Shown here in pieces: positions 56,041-64,000 of a stretch of 64,000 bases of DNA. The position numbers were made by a program, and so were the translations under genes. Each line of letters opens with the position of its first letter. Within the stretch, counting starts at the first letter, position 1. This DNA is from Candidatus Marinacidobacterales bacterium (GTDB taxonomy: Bacteria > Acidobacteriota > Vicinamibacteria > Marinacidobacterales > DATDRI01), in NCBI GenBank assembly GCA_965226495.1, contig OZ245365.1, forward strand, positions 1,632,001 through 1,696,000, read 5' to 3'. The notes under the pieces were generated by a model. That model ran no database searches. It saw nothing but the letters and a program-made list of their open reading frames with translations, and was not told the DNA's origin.

Positions 56041-57450
56041 ATGACCGTTCGCTGGGCTCATGCACGCGCCGCCATTCGGCCGATCGGGGAGAGGCTCGGC
56101 CTAGAAGAGAAGCTCGCGCCCTACTGGGATCGCACCTGGACCGGGGAGTTAGAGAATCGACCCACGCTTTACCTCGATGACGTATCCGAAATTCCGTTCT
56201 TAGATGAGATTTCAGGAGTTGAAGAATACCAGCACCGTGCTCGGGCACGGGCCGGGGAAGGCGACCTATTTGCGACCGTCAGTCAGCCGGTCGCCGGCTA
56301 TGAGGAGTATTGCCGTGAGCGGCTTCAGCTTGGCGCTCCAGAGGGGATCGTGGCCGATGTCGTGACGAGTCCCATCGCCGTGACCCGGGCGTGCAGCGAG
56401 GGTGCGGCCTTTCAACGTCTCGTCGAATCTGCTCGTTCGGCCGGGCTTGTCATCCATCCGTACATGAGCATCGAGCCGGTCTGGGAATTAGCCGGCCGCA
56501 TTCGAGATGAAACGGGAAATGCCGTGACCGTTATCGGGCCGCCCCCACCGATAACAGAACTGGCTAATGACAAGGCGCTCTTCAGCGAAGTCGTCGTCGC
56601 CGTGCTCGGCGAGCAGTGGTTAGTCGATACGCGCATGACGACGAACCCCACCAAGCTTGCGAACCATCTCCTCGAACTCGCGGAAACTCATCGGCTCGTC
56701 GCTCTCAAACGTGCCCGGTGCGCTTCCGGAATGGGGAACTTGGTTTTGGAGGCGCGCGCCCTTACCGGGAGGAGCGCCTCCGCCGTGGAGAAGGACGTGC
56801 GTTCTTTCCTAGAGCGCACGCAATGGGATGGCGAGGAAACGGTGCTCGCAGTCGGTTGGGAACAAACGAACGTCACGCCCTCGACGCAGTTGTGGCTTCC
56901 GCCGGTTGGCGATGGCGCGCCGCAGCTAGATGGAATCTACGAACAAATTCTGGCACCCGGGACGAGTGTATTCATGGGCAGTCGGCCGTCGACCCTTTCG
57001 ACGGCGCTCAATCGCCGCATCGGGAATGCGTCGCTCGAGATCGCGACAGCCTTCCAAGACCTGGGGTATGTGGGAAGGTGCTCCTTCGATCTACTAGTTG
57101 TGGGTGATCCCGAGGGCGATTGCCGAGTGCGGTTTGTCGAGTGTAACGGCCGCTGGGGGGGCACGAGCATCCCCATGCACCTCGTGGACCGCCTGGTGGG
57201 GACTCCTCGGCCGCCGTACCGCGCGCAGGATTTCGTCCACTCGGATTTGGTCGGCAGCGCTTTCCAGGATGTCCTCGATCGCGTCGGCGACTCGCTCTAT
57301 GATGCGGAAACTCGTCGCGGCCGGTTTATCGTCTATAATGTGGGCCCGTTGGCCGGCTCGGGCAAAATCGACGTCATCGCCATCGGTGAAACGCCGCAAC
57401 AGGCGGAGAGTGCTTTGGAGGATGAGCTTCCGGAACTTCTCGGCTTTTGA
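56041..57450 (+). CDS. ATP-grasp protein with pre-ATP-grasp domain (PGM1-like peptide ligase family)
   Basis: ANDKALF, LKRARCASGMGN, EQIL...FMG, YVGRCSFD and ECNGRWGG (ExNxR) motifs. Confidence 0.75.
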   Translation: MTVRWAHARAAIRPIGERLGLEEKLAPYWDRTWTGELENRPTLYLDDVSEIPFLDEISGVEEYQHRARARAGEGDLFATVSQPVAGYEEYCRERLQLGAPEGIVADVVTSPIAVTRACSEGAAFQRLVESARSAGLVIHPYMSIEPVWELAGRIRDETGNAVTVIGPPPPITELANDKALFSEVVVAVLGEQWLVDTRMTTNPTKLANHLLELAETHRLVALKRARCASGMGNLVLEARALTGRSASAVEKDVRSFLERTQWDGEETVLAVGWEQTNVTPSTQLWLPPVGDGAPQLDGIYEQILAPGTSVFMGSRPSTLSTALNRRIGNASLEIATAFQDLGYVGRCSFDLLVVGDPEGDCRVRFVECNGRWGGTSIPMHLVDRLVGTPRPPYRAQDFVHSDLVGSAFQDVLDRVGDSLYDAETRRGRFIVYNVGPLAGSGKIDVIAIGETPQQAESALEDELPELLGF

Positions 57451-57481: not shown

Positions 57482-58072
57482 GTGCGACACGAGAGTAGGT
57501 TTTCATACGTCATTTCAGTACTGGCAATTCTGATTTGTTCGGTAGCCGTAAACGCGACGGCAGAAGATCAGAGGGAGGAGTACAGCGGCTTCGTGATCAA
57601 TAAGAGCCGCAGCGCCATAAACAACTCCGCCACGGTTAGAATCGCCATCGAGCGGTGGTCGACCGATGAAGAGAGGTCCGCGCTAATCAATGCGCTGGTC
57701 GAGAACGGCCACGAAGGGTTCGTGAAAGTTCTACAGGGCCAAAAAGAAACAGGATTCGTGCGCTCACAAGCAGCGACCGACACCGTTGGCGGATTGCCGC
57801 GCATCGTCACGCGCTACGCGCGCAAGGTTACCGAGAACGGCACAACGACTATTACCTTGGTTACCGATCGACCGATGCGTGGCAAGGAAGATCCGGAGTA
57901 CAAGAAATACAACGTCTCCGCGCTTCGACTCGAGCTTAGCGAGGAAGGGAAGGGGACCGGTATCGTTTACGTGGCACTCAAGGTCGGTTATGACAAAGAG
58001 AAACAACGGCTACTCCTACAAAGTGCGACGATAGAGCCAGTCCATTTGACCAATGTGCATTTGAACAAGTAA
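57482..58072 (+). CDS. Secreted hypothetical protein
   Basis: Signal peptide, AAGGAGGAG RBS, IERWSTDEER and LVTDRP motifs. Confidence 0.75.
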   Translation: MRHESRFSYVISVLAILICSVAVNATAEDQREEYSGFVINKSRSAINNSATVRIAIERWSTDEERSALINALVENGHEGFVKVLQGQKETGFVRSQAATDTVGGLPRIVTRYARKVTENGTTTITLVTDRPMRGKEDPEYKKYNVSALRLELSEEGKGTGIVYVALKVGYDKEKQRLLLQSATIEPVHLTNVHLNK

Positions 58073-58317: not shown

Positions 58318-58554
58318 ATACCCAACTTGGGGTTCGCCTACATGTGCCGAGTAGTCGAAAACACCAAGTTCCGAGTCTGCCGGGGAGCGCCGACGGCGGG
58401 ATTCCTAGCCGGTTTTTCGCAAGACAACCTACCTACCTCATTGCCTGGGGCCTAGCTTCTCCATGAGTTCGTAGAGCGGCGAGAAGGGCGCATCGCCTCG
58501 AGTGGTTTCCACAACGATTTTCGTCGTGGTAGCCTTGCCGGTCGAGCAACAACC

Positions 58555-59013
58555 ATGGCAGAACGCAGTCACCGCCAGGAGACGATCCTCGAGCTCATCG
58601 GGCGGAAACCCGTGCGTACCCAACACGAGTTCCTCAAAGAACTACGCCGACACGGCGTGGAATTGACTCAAGCAACTCTCTCCCGCGAGCTCAAGTCGCT
58701 CGGGGTAGCGAAGGGACCGGACGGACGGGGAGGCTATCGCTATGTTGCGGGTGCCCCCGGTTCGGGGCTTTCCGGGCAGGGGCCGGTGCCCGCGGTCGCC
58801 GCGTTCGTCAGAAGCGTCGAGCGAAGCAACAACCTTCTAGTCGTTAAGACGCCCCCCGGGAACGCCCAGGGTGTGGCGCGCGGGATCGATCAAGCGGAGT
58901 GGTCCGAGGTCTTGGGGACCATCGCCGGCGACGACACCATCCTCCTTATCTGCCGGAACCAGCCACAGGCGACGCGCGTGGAGCGGCGGCTGAAGCTCAT
59001 CGCGCGTTCGTAG
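58555..59013 (+). CDS. argR: Arginine repressor
   Basis: RQETILELI, TQATLSREL, VVKTPPGNA and GTIAGDDT motifs. Confidence 0.95.
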   Translation: MAERSHRQETILELIGRKPVRTQHEFLKELRRHGVELTQATLSRELKSLGVAKGPDGRGGYRYVAGAPGSGLSGQGPVPAVAAFVRSVERSNNLLVVKTPPGNAQGVARGIDQAEWSEVLGTIAGDDTILLICRNQPQATRVERRLKLIARS

Positions 59014-59045
59014 ACTCCCCACCATCATCTTTTTTACTAATTTAC

Positions 59046-59103
59046 TTGACCCAGGCCCGCCCGGTGTAGATAATTATACTATGGAGATGCATAATTATGC
59101 AGC
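59046..59103 (+). promoter_or_regulatory. Promoter overlapped by tandem ARG boxes
   Basis: TTGACC-17 nt-GATAAT; cores TAGATAATTATACT (59067) and TGCATAATTATGCA (59088) 21 bp apart. Confidence 0.85.
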
Positions 59104-59125
59104 CGCAACGGTGAGGGCTGGGGCC

Positions 59126-60154
59126 GTGATCCGCTGGGACTACGTGTCGTCGGCGGCAAGTCGCCTGCCGCTTGCCCAGCGAACCGACGGTCTCGGGCCA
59201 GGTCGAGTGCAGGCCGGTGAGGCCTTGCTGGTCCGGGTCCTGGAGCCCAACCATGCCTACGACAATCTCGAGCTGGCGAGCGGTGACACCGTGGGTCTTC
59301 GAAGCGGCGACCAATTCGTAGCCGTCGCCGGGAGCCGACAGGCACTCCGCGGCTTCGTAGGGAGTCCCCCAGAGAGTGCGCGACCGGGCGACCGGCTTTC
59401 AATCCTTAGCTTGGGTGGCATCGTTGGGCGCTTCACGGGAGGTCTTTTGGATCTCGGCGTCCCGACGTCGGTCGAGGTCGTCGATCGACTCGGGCAACAC
59501 GGGCGGCCGCTTTGTATGACCGACAACGCGATTCCTCGGCGGGGGGAGCTGGGCTCGATCTGTCCGGTGGTCGCCGTCGTGGGTACGTCGATGAGCGCCG
59601 GTAAGACCCGGGCCGCCACCGAGCTCGTTGCCGGCGCCGCCGCCGCTGGCTTCCGTGTCGCGGCGGTGAAGCTCACTGGAGTCGCGTGTCTGAGAGACGT
59701 TCTCCGCATGCGGGAACGAGGAGCGTTCGAAGCCGTCTCGTTCCTCGACTCTGGCTTGCCGTCTACGGTGGATGCACTTGAGCTTACTTCCGTTGCCAAA
59801 GGGCTTTTGCATCATCTCAACGAGATGAGCCCCGACCTTATCGTTGCCGAGCTGGGCGACGGCATCCTGGGGCCCTACGGCGTGGATCGACTTCTTCAAG
59901 AACCGTCTCTAAATCGTGCGATCCGGGTCCTGGTTCTCAGCGCATCGGACCATGTGGGCGCGTGGGGCGGGGTTGAGCTCCTGCGACGCTGGGGCCTTTC
60001 CACCGACGTCATCACCGGCCCGGTGACGGATAGCACCGCCTCGAGCCAATTCCTCGAGCAAACCTTGGGTGTGCCGGCGGTCAACGCGTGCACCAACGGC
60101 CATCAACTCTTCGATGTCATCCAGTCGAGGCTGTCGGCGCTGAAGCGACTATGA
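59126..60154 (+). CDS. DUF1611/DgcN-like P-loop protein, first gene of the arg operon
   Basis: VVGTSMSAGKT, AAVKLTGVA..RD, F.D.G.PST and IVAELGDGILG motifs; ATGA overlap with argC; GTG 59126 preferred because ATG 59081 and 59087 lie in the operators. Confidence 0.75.
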   Translation: MIRWDYVSSAASRLPLAQRTDGLGPGRVQAGEALLVRVLEPNHAYDNLELASGDTVGLRSGDQFVAVAGSRQALRGFVGSPPESARPGDRLSILSLGGIVGRFTGGLLDLGVPTSVEVVDRLGQHGRPLCMTDNAIPRRGELGSICPVVAVVGTSMSAGKTRAATELVAGAAAAGFRVAAVKLTGVACLRDVLRMRERGAFEAVSFLDSGLPSTVDALELTSVAKGLLHHLNEMSPDLIVAELGDGILGPYGVDRLLQEPSLNRAIRVLVLSASDHVGAWGGVELLRRWGLSTDVITGPVTDSTASSQFLEQTLGVPAVNACTNGHQLFDVIQSRLSALKRL

Positions 60155-61164
60155 TCCGTGTCGCGGTCGAAGGCGCATCGGGCTACGTCGGTGGCGAGCT
60201 CTTGAGCCTATTGTTTCATCACCCCGAAGTGGAGGTCGTGGCCGCTACCGCGGGACAAGCGGGCGGCGAGGAGCTATCCGAGCTTCGGCCGCGTTTCGGA
60301 GCCAGCTCGTTGCGATTGCTGAAAGAGCTCGAGCCAGACCAACTCGAAGACCTCGATCTCCTTTTCCTTGCTCTTCCTCACGGCGAGTCGTCGAAACGCA
60401 TCGCGTCGATCTCCAAAGAGCTCCGCGTCATTGACTTGTCCGCAGACTTTCGGATCGACGATCGGGAACGCGCCGAGGCGACCTACGGGCCGCACGTGGC
60501 CTGGGATTTTCAACAAGAGTTTGTTTACGGACTTCCGGAGTTGAATCGTTCCCGCATCCGGGAAGCCCACCGCATCGCGGTGCCAGGTTGCTTTGCCACC
60601 GCGGCCTCGGTCGGTCTCATCCCGGCGTTGGAAGCCAATGCGTTGCTCGGACCTCCTTGGATCTCCGCGGTCACCGGCTCTTCGGGCTCCGGTCATCGGG
60701 CGACGGCGAAGACGCATCATCCGGACCGTGCACTCAATTTCTACGCCTACCAACCGAACGGCCACCGCCATCAGCCGGAGATCGAATCGGCGCTGGCGCG
60801 GTTGAACTCGAATAAGTTTCCGATCGAGCTGCAAGTTCATTCCGCACCGCTGGTACGCGGTATCTACGCAACCATTTTCTTTACAACCGAGCCGTCGGTC
60901 GACCTTCCCGAGATCTATCGCCGCCGTTATTGTCAGGAAGAATCGTTCGTTCGAGTCCAAGAGCAACCGCCACAGCTCACCGACGTCATAGGGACACCGC
61001 GGGCGGCGGTTTCCGTGTCGGTGCGTTCGGGGCAGGCGACAGTCTTCGTGGCCATCGATAATTTGCTCAAGGGCGCAGCCTCGCAGGCCATCCAGTGCAT
61101 GAATCTCGTTTTCGACATACCCGAAGAGACGGGGCTCGCGTGGCCCGTCGGAGTGCTTCCTTGA
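60151..61164 (+). CDS. argC: N-acetyl-gamma-glutamyl-phosphate reductase
   Basis: GASGYVGGEL, LALPHG, DLSADFR, YGLPE, PGCFAT, HRHQPEI and DNLLKGAA motifs. Confidence 0.93.
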   Translation: MIRVAVEGASGYVGGELLSLLFHHPEVEVVAATAGQAGGEELSELRPRFGASSLRLLKELEPDQLEDLDLLFLALPHGESSKRIASISKELRVIDLSADFRIDDRERAEATYGPHVAWDFQQEFVYGLPELNRSRIREAHRIAVPGCFATAASVGLIPALEANALLGPPWISAVTGSSGSGHRATAKTHHPDRALNFYAYQPNGHRHQPEIESALARLNSNKFPIELQVHSAPLVRGIYATIFFTTEPSVDLPEIYRRRYCQEESFVRVQEQPPQLTDVIGTPRAAVSVSVRSGQATVFVAIDNLLKGAASQAIQCMNLVFDIPEETGLAWPVGVLP

Positions 61165-61171
61165 GTGCCTC

Positions 61172-61299
61172 AATGCGCGCTCACTCCTCGTTCGCGCGCT
61201 CGGCGCCTCGCTCCCCGCTCGGCGACCTGTCGTCGGCCCATGCGGGCCGGGCTCGCTCCGCTCGCGCAGGGTGCAGTTTAGTCGTCAGCACCCTGCTAG
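61172..61299 (-). repeat. Intergenic repeat backbone (module-free form of 10582-10841)
   Basis: Minus strand TAGCAGGGTGCT...TGCACCCTGCGCGAG..GAGCGAGC.CGGCCCG..TGGGCCGACGAC...GCGCCGAGC.CGCGAACG...GTGAGCG.GCA.TGA. Confidence 0.8.
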
Positions 61300-61306
61300 G
61301 AAACCG

Positions 61307-62107
61307 ATGCAATCACTACAGGTGATCAAGCTAGGCGGGGCGTCGCTCGAAGAGAATCTGCCGCAGATCGCATCGGTGCTTGCCGCTACCGACTCGCCTC
61401 GCGTCATCGTGCACGGCGGAGGACCGCAGGTGTCGGCCATGGCTTCTCGTCTCGGTATCCCCACTCAGAAGGTCGCGGGCCGGCGCGTCACGGATGAAGC
61501 AACTCTGGACGTCGTGTTGATGGTTCTGGCCGGCCTGGTTCACAACCGCGTGGTCGGCACTCTCGTCGCCTCCGGGGTGCCGGCAGTCGGAATCGCCGGA
61601 CCGTCCGTGTTCCGGGCACGACGCCGACCGCCCATCGAGATCGACGGCGAGACCGTCGACTTCGGGCTGGTGGGTGAAATCGAGCACGTCGAGGTGGGAC
61701 CGATCCGCGCGGTACTGGAGAGAGGAGACATCCCCATCCTTCCGTCGATTGCGGGTGGAAAAGATGGAGCGCTTTTCAACGTTAACGCGGATACCGTCGC
61801 CGCCTGGGTAGCGGCCGAGCTCGGTGCCCACGAGTTGATTCAGGTCACGGACAGTGGCGGGGTGAGGGAAGTGAACGACTCCGTCATTCAGGACCTCGAC
61901 CTCGCCGGGACCCGGCGTCTGATCTCGGAGGGAATCGCCACCGATGGGATGCGGCCCAAGCTCGAGACCGCCATTTGGGCACTGCGGTCGGGTGTGTCGC
62001 GGGTCCGCATCGTGGGGGCAGGCGGCATCGGCGTCCCGGATGGCGGGACCGTTTTGACCGCTTCCGGCGTGGCCCGACCCGTCTTGAACCAGTCCGGGTT
62101 GACTTAG
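61307..62107 (+). CDS. argB: Acetylglutamate kinase
   Basis: VIKLGG, VHGGGPQ, GRRVTD, DFGLVGE, NVNAD and GMRPK motifs. Confidence 0.93.
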   Translation: MQSLQVIKLGGASLEENLPQIASVLAATDSPRVIVHGGGPQVSAMASRLGIPTQKVAGRRVTDEATLDVVLMVLAGLVHNRVVGTLVASGVPAVGIAGPSVFRARRRPPIEIDGETVDFGLVGEIEHVEVGPIRAVLERGDIPILPSIAGGKDGALFNVNADTVAAWVAAELGAHELIQVTDSGGVREVNDSVIQDLDLAGTRRLISEGIATDGMRPKLETAIWALRSGVSRVRIVGAGGIGVPDGGTVLTASGVARPVLNQSGLT

Positions 62108-62109
62108 GG

Positions 62110-62148
62110 TGTGCGACTTTATACACTTGGCATGCATATATATTCACG
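62110..62148 (+). promoter_or_regulatory. Tandem ARG boxes upstream of argG
   Basis: Cores TGCGACTTTATACA (62112) and TGCATATATATTCA (62133), 21 bp apart. Confidence 0.78.
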
Positions 62149-62221
62149 GACCGGTAATCGACGCTCTGTGGCACTTGGGATTACTTGGGATGACCGGCCC
62201 GGCTAACTGGAGGCGCTGACC

Positions 62222-63535
62222 ATGAAACCAACGAAGGTCGTTCTAGCCTACTCGGGAGGGCTCGACACCTCGGTGGCGGTCCCCTGGCTCAAGGAGAACT
62301 ACGATTGCGAGGTCATCGCCATGTTGGCGGACGTCGGTCAAGGCGAGGACCTCGAAGCGGCGGCGGAAAAAGCCCTCGCCATCGGTGCTTGTCAGGCCTT
62401 CATCGAAGACCTGCGGACCGAGTTCGTCCGCGACTACTTTTTTCGATCGCTCCGCGCCGGAGCCCGCTACGAAGGGAAGTACCTCCTCGGTACTTCGCTA
62501 GCGCGTCCGGTCATCGCTCGTCGCCAAGTCGAGATCGCCGAGCGGGAGGGTGCCACGGCGTTGGCCCATGGTTGCACCGGCAAAGGTAACGACCAGGTTC
62601 GCTTCGAGCTGACCTATTTGGCGCTTGCACCTGATCTGAAAGTAATCGCTCCTTGGCGTGAGTGGAAGATCCGCTCCCGTGAGGACGCGCTGGCGTACGC
62701 CGAGGCACGCGGGATTCCCGTTGCTCAAACTACTGAGAATCTGTACAGCCGCGACGGGAACTTGCTGCACCTGAGTCACGAGGGGGGCATCCTAGAGGAC
62801 CCGTGGGCGGCTCCCGATGACGACATGTACCTGATGACGAAACACCCCGTCGATGCACCTGCCACGCCGGAGTCCGTCGAGGTCGAGTTTCGCCGCGGCT
62901 ATCCGATCGCGGTGGACGGCCAACCGCTCGAGCCGGTCCAGCTTCTCGAACGGCTCAACGAGATCGGGGCTCGGCACGGGGTGGGTCGAATCGACATCAT
63001 CGAGAACCGGTTAGTGGGGATGAAATCACGCGGCGTCTATGAGACTCCCGGAGGAACCATCCTTCGCGAGGCTCACGAGGCTCTCGAGAGCATTTGTCTC
63101 GACCGGGACACCTCTCACTTCAAGGCGGGCGTCGCGCTTCGCTATTCGGAGCTGGTCTACAATGGACAATGGTTCTCACCACTCCGTGAAGCGCTCGACG
63201 CCTTCGTGGAGTCGACTCAGGAGACCGTGAGCGGTCGAGTCCGGCTGGAGCTTTACAAAGGGTCGGTGCGAGTAACCGGCCGGAGCTCCGCCTTCAGTCT
63301 GTATCGCGAAGAGTTTGCGACGTTCGGTCACGACGAAGTATATAGTCAGGCGGACGCCGAAGGGTTCATTCATCTGTTCGGCCTGCCACAGAAGATCCGT
63401 CGTATAGCTTTGAAGTCGGCCTTGCCGTCTCCGTCAGCATCGATCCGACGATGGGAAGAGAAAGAAAAAAACAACGGAACTCCCGTCCGGCGCGCTCCGG
63501 AGATGGCCACATCCCGGGAGGGGAAGAAGGGATGA
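62222..63535 (+). CDS. argG: Argininosuccinate synthase
   Basis: [22 protein letters not shown] and [17 protein letters not shown] motifs. Confidence 0.97.
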
Positions 63536-64000
63536 AGGCCCCGGCGGGTCGTCCGCCGTCGAAGCTCTGGGGAGGCCGCTTCCGAAAACCGACCGCAAAG
63601 TCCTTAGAGGATCTCGGTCGCTCCATCGAATTCGATCGCCGTCTTTGGGCGGAAGAAATCCGCATCAACCGAGTCTACGCACGAGCACTCCAGCGGACCG
63701 GCATACTCTCCGGTTCCGAGTGCCGCTCTATCGAGCAGGGATTGGATCGCGTCGGCCGCTGGTTGCAACAAGAGCCCGCCGCTTTCGTCGAAACCGATGA
63801 GGATATTCATACCGCCGCCGAGCGATTGCTAGGCGAAGTCGTTGGACAGGAGCTGGCCGGAAAACTCCCGGCGGGAAGAAGTCGGAACGATTTGGCGGTG
63901 ACCGGATTCCGTCTCCACTTGGGAGCCGTCATTCCAACGCTGCGGGACGACATCCGAAGCCTTCAAGAAACGCTCGTCGTCCGCGCCGAAGAGACGCGCG
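63532..64000 (+). CDS. argH: Argininosuccinate lyase (partial, runs off the window)
   Basis: ATG overlapping the argG stop; [20 protein letters not shown] and GRSRND motifs. Confidence 0.92.

Follow-up and report, generated by a model that had tools for sequence, protein, structure and literature searches.

The last 6 kb of a 64,000-nucleotide stretch of Candidatus Marinacidobacterales DNA (contig OZ245365.1; the whole stretch is called the window below) carry an arginine cluster on the + strand, argR-X-argC-argB-argG-argH, in which X is our short name for the open reading frame (ORF) 59081..60154, a predicted P-loop protein. X is probably the first enzyme of arginine synthesis in this bacterium, an N-acyl-L-glutamate synthase that replaces ArgA and ArgJ and is related to neither. 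The first-pass annotation of the window had arrived at this interpretation, and each of the comparative tests that it proposed came out in its favor. The idea is not new, as PMC13759103 already gives it as a prediction. New here are the exclusion between X and ArgJ, a fusion of an X homolog to an ArgB-like kinase, the domain anatomy of X, whose N-terminal domain has no solved look-alike, and a lineage linked to ornithine carbamoyltransferase (OTC).

The genes and control sites of the cluster, all on the + strand, are the following.

58555..59013, +: argR, arginine repressor (PF01316 61.6 bits, PF02863 89.4 bits)
59046..59074, +: promoter-like site TTGACC-17-GATAAT, 10/12 matches
59067..59101, +: ARG-box pair, 21 bp apart, with a degenerate box at 59067-59080 and the perfect palindrome TGCATAATTATGCA at 59088-59101
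59081..60154, +: X, predicted N-acyl-L-glutamate synthase of the ACG33_RS14135 type, 357 amino acids (aa) from ATG 59081 or 342 aa from GTG 59126
60151..61164, +: argC (TIGR01850 310.7 bits, cut-off 233.6)
61271..62107, +: argB (TIGR00761 187.2 bits, cut-off 151.3; LysW-type kinase models below their own cut-offs)
62099..62146, +: promoter-like site TTGACT-17-TACACT and ARG-box-like TGCATATATATTCA (62133-62146), before argG
62222..63535, +: argG (PF00764, PF20979)
63451..63999, +: 5′ part of argH, which runs off the window (tblastn conservation beside arg genes and reading of the sequence)

Pfam, NCBIfam and the sequence itself bore out the gene order of the first-pass annotation, including the coupling of X to argC, in which the stop codon of X overlaps the start of argC as ATGA (60151-60154). 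X thus lies between an ArgR-controlled promoter and the gene coupled to it, argC, and this position argues for a role in the first step. Three promoter-like sites were found in 58400-62300, against 0.4 expected. The ARG-box pair shares bases with the -10 hexamer and with the start of the long (357-aa) ORF. Tandem ARG boxes had been claimed for this region; the 14-bp palindrome is perfect, but the second box has 4 mismatches and was read by eye, and so the tandem arrangement is only partly demonstrated. Before argG lies a copy of TGCATAATTATGCA with 3 mismatches. The perfect box at 59088-59101 and this copy at 62133-62146 were the only matches to the ARG-box pattern in the 64 kb, and two matches were reached in 8 of 100 shuffles. 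The true start of argH is probably the Met at about 63532, and its ORF reaches 495 aa in the extended locus (L083).

The genome that carries the window (6.34 Mb, 1 contig, 94.8% complete) has argB, argC, argG and argH in the window and OTC elsewhere. A scan of this genome gave no match to ArgJ (PF01960) and nothing over the cut-off for classical ArgA (TIGR01890), a model that hit only ArgB and a generic GNAT (C1:2340125). The absence of classical ArgA and of ArgJ, noted at first for the window, therefore holds genome-wide. A genome with the rest of the pathway and neither ArgJ nor classical ArgA argues for X as the first-step enzyme.

We looked at the distribution of these proteins in 251 sampled Acidobacteriota genomes, counting as strong X the matches of at least 280 bits; the sample includes three genomes flagged as unpublished (G023, G048, G146), and the pattern is the same when they are left out. 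X was matched in 76 genomes, strongly in 67, and ArgJ was found in 69. None of the 67 strong-X genomes has ArgJ, compared with 69 of the 184 others, and the three genomes in which X and ArgJ overlap all have weak X paralogs of 132-171 bits. Classical ArgA was found in a single genome, which is devoid of X. The anti-correlation proposed in the first-pass annotation was thus observed for ArgJ. In the window's class, all 22 sampled genomes have ArgJ and lack X, and in the three that were examined argJ belongs to an argC-argB-argD-argJ-argF cluster beside argR-argG-argH. Since these relatives carry ArgJ in otherwise similar clusters, X and ArgJ appear to be alternatives. In the window's order, X is present in 13 of 31 genomes (among them G257, flagged as unpublished) and ArgJ in none.

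The linkage of X to argC was assessed in 80 acidobacterial loci from GTDB species genomes (Marinacidobacterales, Blastocatellia/Pyrinomonadaceae). argC lies directly downstream of X in 74 of them, and the remaining 6 loci break off no more than about 660 bases past X. The conserved linkage to argCB that the first-pass annotation had put forward as a check is therefore seen on the argC side in nearly all loci. The linked homologs span several acidobacterial clades at 35-88% identity, with three layouts, argR-X-argC-argB-argG-argH in Marinacidobacterales, argR-argG-X-argC-argD-argF′-argB in Blastocatellia, and X-argC-argD-argB in 5/5 loci fetched from three further families. Weak X paralogs (about 130-170 bits) were away from arg genes in 3/3 loci, with no common theme nearby. 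In a phylogenetic tree, the X proteins with arg linkage group together in a single clade that excludes the paralogs (support 96/94).

In one homolog, P0156 (626 aa), X is joined with an amino-acid kinase domain of the ArgB-like type (PF00696 115 bits; TIGR00761 127 bits, below the cut-off of 151). It is the only fusion among the 150 matches listed, and its N terminus is cut. Its make-up mirrors that of ArgA, which combines a kinase-like and a transferase domain. A search among longer homologs of X returned no fused forms, with the 626-aa P0156 sitting at the length boundary of that search. Open frames of 750-867 aa were considered as candidate X-argC fusions and rejected, as the two genes lie in different frames in G134.

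The family to which X probably belongs has been described in print. In Price et al. ('GapMind 2026', PLoS Genet, 12 Nov 2026, PMC13759103), the Steroidobacter protein ACG33_RS14135 is predicted to be an "alternative N-succinylglutamate synthase". The grounds given there are that it is 'a very distant homolog of a D-glutamate acetyltransferase' with a weak match to 7XRJ, that its homologs are nearly always in arg operons, that it shows zero co-occurrence with the Pseudomonas-type ArgA (109 versus 970 genera), and that the succinyl-specificity position is A, P, S or V in 90% of 70 neighboring ArgF′ proteins. A role in the first arginine step was thus proposed independently for the family. Searches of the literature on DUF1611, DgcN and the missing N-acetylglutamate synthase of Acidobacteria returned nothing relevant besides this paper. 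Its supplementary files include a plasmid that carries the Steroidobacter gene. In supplementary file 4, this plasmid, pALF12, bears the label 'A0A127FTC3' where the text has A0A127FCT3, probably a typing slip. The 1074-bp insert is of the same length class as X, and its motifs, read by eye (DKIGS, GTCMEAGKT, KATGVSLRRD, ELGDG, AAWGG, GPATDN), are common to the X family.

X compares with that protein as follows. P0158 resembles the Steroidobacter insert, sharing its motifs and being roughly 70% identical by eye. X is 38% identical to P0158 over 311 residues (167 bits, E 2e-53), and P0158 scores 287.7 bits on the X profile. Like ACG33_RS14135, X lies in an arg cluster, in a genome without classical ArgA, and matches 7XRJ only remotely. 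The X clade is separate from the Steroidobacter-like branch (support 100/100). As judged from these sequence comparisons, X is probably a divergent member of the family predicted in PMC13759103. Unlike the ACG33_RS14135 type, its operon contains neither argF′ nor argD, and a partner ArgF′ was not found in its genome.

The position, conserved argC linkage, ArgJ exclusion, kinase fusion, clade structure and published prediction together lead us to favor a first-step enzyme. The domains and motifs of the protein are given below.

59120..59524, +: N-terminal beta-rich domain, X residues 14-148, not seen in DUF1611 or BioD
59543..60145, +: C-terminal P-loop domain (SIMIBI, BioD/DUF1611_C-like), X residues about 155-355
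59582..59608, +: extended Walker A GTSMSAGKT, X residues 168-176, with G168, M171, G174, K175 and T176 invariant in 23 sequences
59849..59863, +: ELGDG, X residues 257-261, with E257, G259, D260 and G261 invariant in the same 23 sequences

The first-pass annotation had started the gene at 59046. That position is the -35 hexamer of the promoter-like site, and the frame from there is closed by a TAG at 59067-59069; it is therefore not the coding start. GTG 59126 is more likely than ATG 59081 to be the coding start, because of the position of the promoter, and the database representative of X, P0001, is the 342-aa form that begins at this GTG. Residues 1-13 of the longer form are unconserved in 23 homologs, with a predicted local distance difference test (pLDDT) score under 50. 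Close X homologs have a conserved N-terminal 'MHN[YK]' that coincides with the ARG-box palindrome (window 59081-59101), and this conservation may reflect operator DNA and not protein.

The 23 aligned X members have a mean column identity of 63%. The motifs recognized by eye in the first-pass annotation were all present in the translation (GTSMSAGKT, KLTGVACLRD, GLPSTV, ELGDG) and are invariant or nearly so in these homologs. Invariant in all 23 are GT-x-M-xx-GKT, KL-x-GVACL-x-D, SFLD-x-GL-x-STV, E-x-GDG, A-x-D-x-V-x-AWG and TD, and the family-wide forms are GT[SC]MxxGKT, K-[LA]-[ST]-G and E-x-GDG. In the profile alignment, ELGDG aligns with the EGQG motif of DUF1611, and we take its position to be that of the acidic Walker-B-like motif of BioD. 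The family comprises 487 proteins at E 0.001 or better in a word-indexed search and 441 clusters (50% identity) at E 1e-30 or better in an exhaustive search. Nearly all named homologs are called 'hypothetical'. The N-terminal domain has no look-alike among solved structures; it may serve in substrate binding or in assembly.

The relationship of X to DUF1611 is remote. The Pfam model DUF1611_C (PF07755) gave 23.6 bits, below its cut-off of 25, with residues 161-197 on profile positions 12-48 of 201, whereas full-length true DUF1611 members score 151-240 bits. No DgcN-type model was found at E 0.01 or better in the NCBIfam scan, which gave only a 17-bit MobB match, and searches of the PDB with the X sequence and the family profile returned only chance matches (designed TIM barrels, response regulators). 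A profile-profile comparison of the X family with nine true DUF1611 proteins reached 91.6% probability over 216 columns, in the C-terminal domain only. When a structure model of X was used as query, DUF1611 and DgcN came out on top, as the first-pass annotation would have it, tied with BioD and followed by HypB, ApbC, CTP synthase and signal recognition particle (SRP) GTPases; Foldseek agreed. The description of X as DUF1611-related thus stands as a remote kinship of its C-terminal half; it fails the Pfam threshold and does not extend to the N-terminal domain, which is unrelated to that of DgcN/DUF1611 (PF07755; PDB 7XRJ, 2G0T, 2OBN). The DUF1611 signatures TGQT, HPAY and H-x-P-x-R are absent from X, and the nine aligned DUF1611 proteins have GK-[RM]-T as Walker A, with R or M at the position of the Thr in the canonical GKT of X. 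Their contexts also differ. DgcN, a D-glutamate N-acetyltransferase according to its PDB title and PMC13759103, belongs to D-glutamate catabolism, while X belongs to arginine synthesis. On sequence grounds, X is a distinct family that shares with DUF1611 only a remote P-loop ancestry. The genome of the window also has a true DUF1611/DgcN-type gene (236 bits) at C1:895149-895733 (L105 1441-2640, minus strand), in a context unrelated to the arg cluster.

BioD has no family-level sequence match to X, as no BioD model was found at E 0.01 or better in the NCBIfam scan, and X differs from it by an extra 150-residue N-terminal domain and by its genomic context. With ArgA and ArgJ, X has in common the proposed reaction and the place in arg clusters, without any relation in sequence or fold; Pfam detected neither a GNAT nor an ArgJ domain in X. 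A route with a LysW carrier and ArgX was also considered and rejected. ArgB and ArgC pass the argB/argC equivalog cut-offs and fail the LysW-type models, and the spaces between the genes of the cluster, 106 and 114 bases long, are too short for a LysW-like carrier gene.

By analogy with DgcN, the likeliest and most economical chemistry of X would be that of an acyl-coenzyme A (CoA):L-glutamate N-acyltransferase. The acyl group would come from succinyl-CoA or acetyl-CoA and be passed by X to the L-glutamate amino group, and the P-loop of X would bind the CoA phosphates. ArgB and ArgC, encoded immediately downstream, would use the product, and ArgR would repress the operon as a whole by way of the ARG boxes that cover its promoter.

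The nature of the acyl group may differ between lineages. ArgF′ was found in 52 of the 67 strong-X genomes; the 15 others, the genome of the window among them, belong to at least two separate clades. The ArgF′ of a Blastocatellia locus (L015) has a Thr where acetylornithine carbamoyltransferase has Glu92, consistent with the succinyl view in PMC13759103. Most members of the X family probably make N-succinyl-glutamate and not N-acetyl-glutamate. The first-pass annotation had named N-acetyl-L-glutamate or another N-acyl form. In the genome of the window, there was no match to ArgF′ (NF003384), and an ordinary OTC (421.7 bits) is the sole carbamoyltransferase of the ornithine type. An ArgF′ partner defines the acyl group, not the X family. 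With OTC and no ArgF′ in this genome, removal of the acyl group from ornithine has to come ahead of carbamoylation. The published succinyl inference (PMC13759103) rests on residue 92 of ArgF′ and is thus not transferable to this genome. The scan of the genome for the remaining enzymes returned no clear ortholog of ArgD (best 32% identity) and, for ArgE, no M20 protein at the cut-off among 17 M20 homologs (best 173.7 bits versus 297.7).

Several observations weigh against X as the acyl-CoA-dependent first-step enzyme. The prediction for the family is marked as not experimentally confirmed in the table of PMC13759103. Neither X nor ArgJ was found in 109 of the 251 genomes, nor in 18 of the 31 genomes of the window's order, three of which carry argR-argC-argD-argF′-argB without X; three ArgF′ genomes also lack X. 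As a single genome has ArgA, first-step enzymes beyond X, ArgJ and ArgA must exist in the phylum, and the X/ArgJ exclusion alone is not decisive. The count of 0/67 moreover reflects only a few evolutionary events, as related genomes are not independent. There are many GNATs in a 6.3-Mb genome, and a short GNAT-type synthase could be one of them. With regard to the chemistry, the fold match of X to DgcN is within about 1-2 Z of those to BioD, HypB and other P-loop proteins, so that the fold alone does not point to acyl transfer, and its GKT, compared with the GK-[RM]-T of DUF1611, hints that the P-loop may bind Mg-nucleoside triphosphate instead of CoA. We looked at two arg operons without X for a stand-in gene, and none was identified: the upstream neighbors are Mla transporter genes in G173, and 7 neighboring + strand ORFs of G259 have no Pfam match.

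The GKT motif and the tie with BioD are also what make an ATP-dependent ligase the foremost alternative, albeit a rather unlikely one. Such an enzyme would be independent of CoA and phosphorylate the carboxylate of acetate or succinate; the amino group of glutamate would then attack the acyl phosphate to yield N-acyl-glutamate, ADP and phosphate. BioD, CobQ, CTP synthase and formyl-tetrahydrofolate synthetase are P-loop enzymes of the acyl-phosphate type with which X can be compared. X keeps the Walker A Lys-Thr, the invariant K197-L-[ST]-G that follows its second strand resembles what is presumably the K-P-V-x-S-G motif of BioD, and three homologs were annotated as 'dethiobiotin synthetase' by JGI. 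Nevertheless, free succinate or acetate as a substrate is a guess, and the BioD model TIGR00347 does not match X in its genome, where the only match at E 1e-10 or better is C1:4413223. Furthermore, DgcN, the only characterized relative, is described as an N-acetyltransferase (PDB title; PMC13759103). A bolder form of this proposal, to which we also give a low probability, is that X is a BioD-like, CoA-independent glutamate N-acyl ligase with a substrate-binding beta domain, its fold new to solved structures, and that the acyl group of the family would have switched by lineage, succinyl with ArgF′ and acetyl or another group with OTC.

It is considerably less probable that X performs the late function of ArgJ or ArgE, as an N-acyl-ornithine or N-acyl-citrulline deacylase or as a transacylase that returns the acyl group to glutamate. 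ArgJ also takes the acetyl group off acetylornithine, and the exclusion between X and ArgJ would fit this role equally well. The low score of the best M20 protein of the genome against the ArgE cut-off goes in the same direction, and Steroidobacter also lacks a recognizable ArgE according to PMC13759103, although plausible argE genes adjoin some of the family's homologs in the same source. The first step would however still be missing, with ArgA and ArgJ both absent. In addition, a P-loop fold with an invariant Walker A Lys-Thr is not a hydrolase scaffold, any of the 17 M20 homologs could act as ArgE, and the partner of X in P0156 is the kinase of step 2 and not a late enzyme. Least probable of all is an accessory P-loop NTPase, either a metallochaperone of the HypB/UreG/MeaB type for a metal-dependent arg enzyme or a regulator, as DUF1611 and BioD-type enzymes score higher in the structure search, no NKxD guanine motif was seen in X by eye, the only Cys invariant in the 23 sequences, C203, is a Ser in the Steroidobacter-like branch (GVSL in P0158), leaving no conserved metal-binding Cys motif, and the strict ArgJ exclusion and missing first step would be left unexplained.

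A second P-loop gene adjoins the OTC gene of the genome that carries the window. It encodes a protein with RTGAGKS ... NKMD (C1:3472771-3473739; L084 2412-3383, minus strand; also L131), lies directly upstream of the only OTC gene, with stop and start overlapping, and has only a faint Pfam match to CobW/HypB/UreG. Homologs were found in 81 of 121 sampled Acidobacteriota, and in 20 of 24 loci an OTC-family gene shares their strand. In the one such locus that was examined (L132), a gene for an amino-acid kinase (carbamate-kinase-like) stands between the P-loop gene and the OTC-family gene, and most of the others also show a gap of about 1 kb. The P-loop gene of the present genome looks interrupted upstream of C1:3473739 (L131 2470-2820, minus strand), where about 120 N-terminal codons are split off by an in-frame TAG and a frame shift; its relatives have open frames of 440-470 aa. 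It is either a pseudogene or the result of an assembly error.

In the window itself, two genes upstream of argR, an ORF of 469 aa (window 56041-57450, +) has sub-threshold pre-ATP-grasp and PGM1_C matches, in the manner of a peptide-ligase-like ATP-grasp protein, and we saw no link between this ORF and the arg genes. It is followed by a 196-aa ORF (window 57482-58072, +) with a hydrophobic N terminus and no Pfam or NCBIfam match, and about 480 bases of non-coding DNA separate the latter from argR. Elsewhere in the same order, three genomes (G276, G268, G275; L125-L127) have second argC-like genes in argC-gap-weak argB-argD clusters that resemble LysW-type (lysine) clusters.

Many bacteria have no assigned enzyme for the first step of arginine synthesis, and ArgJ or classical ArgA was found in only 70 of the 251 Acidobacteriota genomes. 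With X as an N-acyl-L-glutamate synthase, its family would fill the first-step gap in about a quarter of these genomes and in Steroidobacter-like Proteobacteria. If confirmed, it would represent a third, structurally unrelated route to N-acylglutamate, based on a P-loop fold whose usual ligands are nucleotides, and it would correct the labels 'hypothetical protein', 'dethiobiotin synthetase' and 'MobB' as well as false predictions of auxotrophy for soil and marine genomes. The OTC-linked lineage offers a natural contrast for what sets the acyl group.

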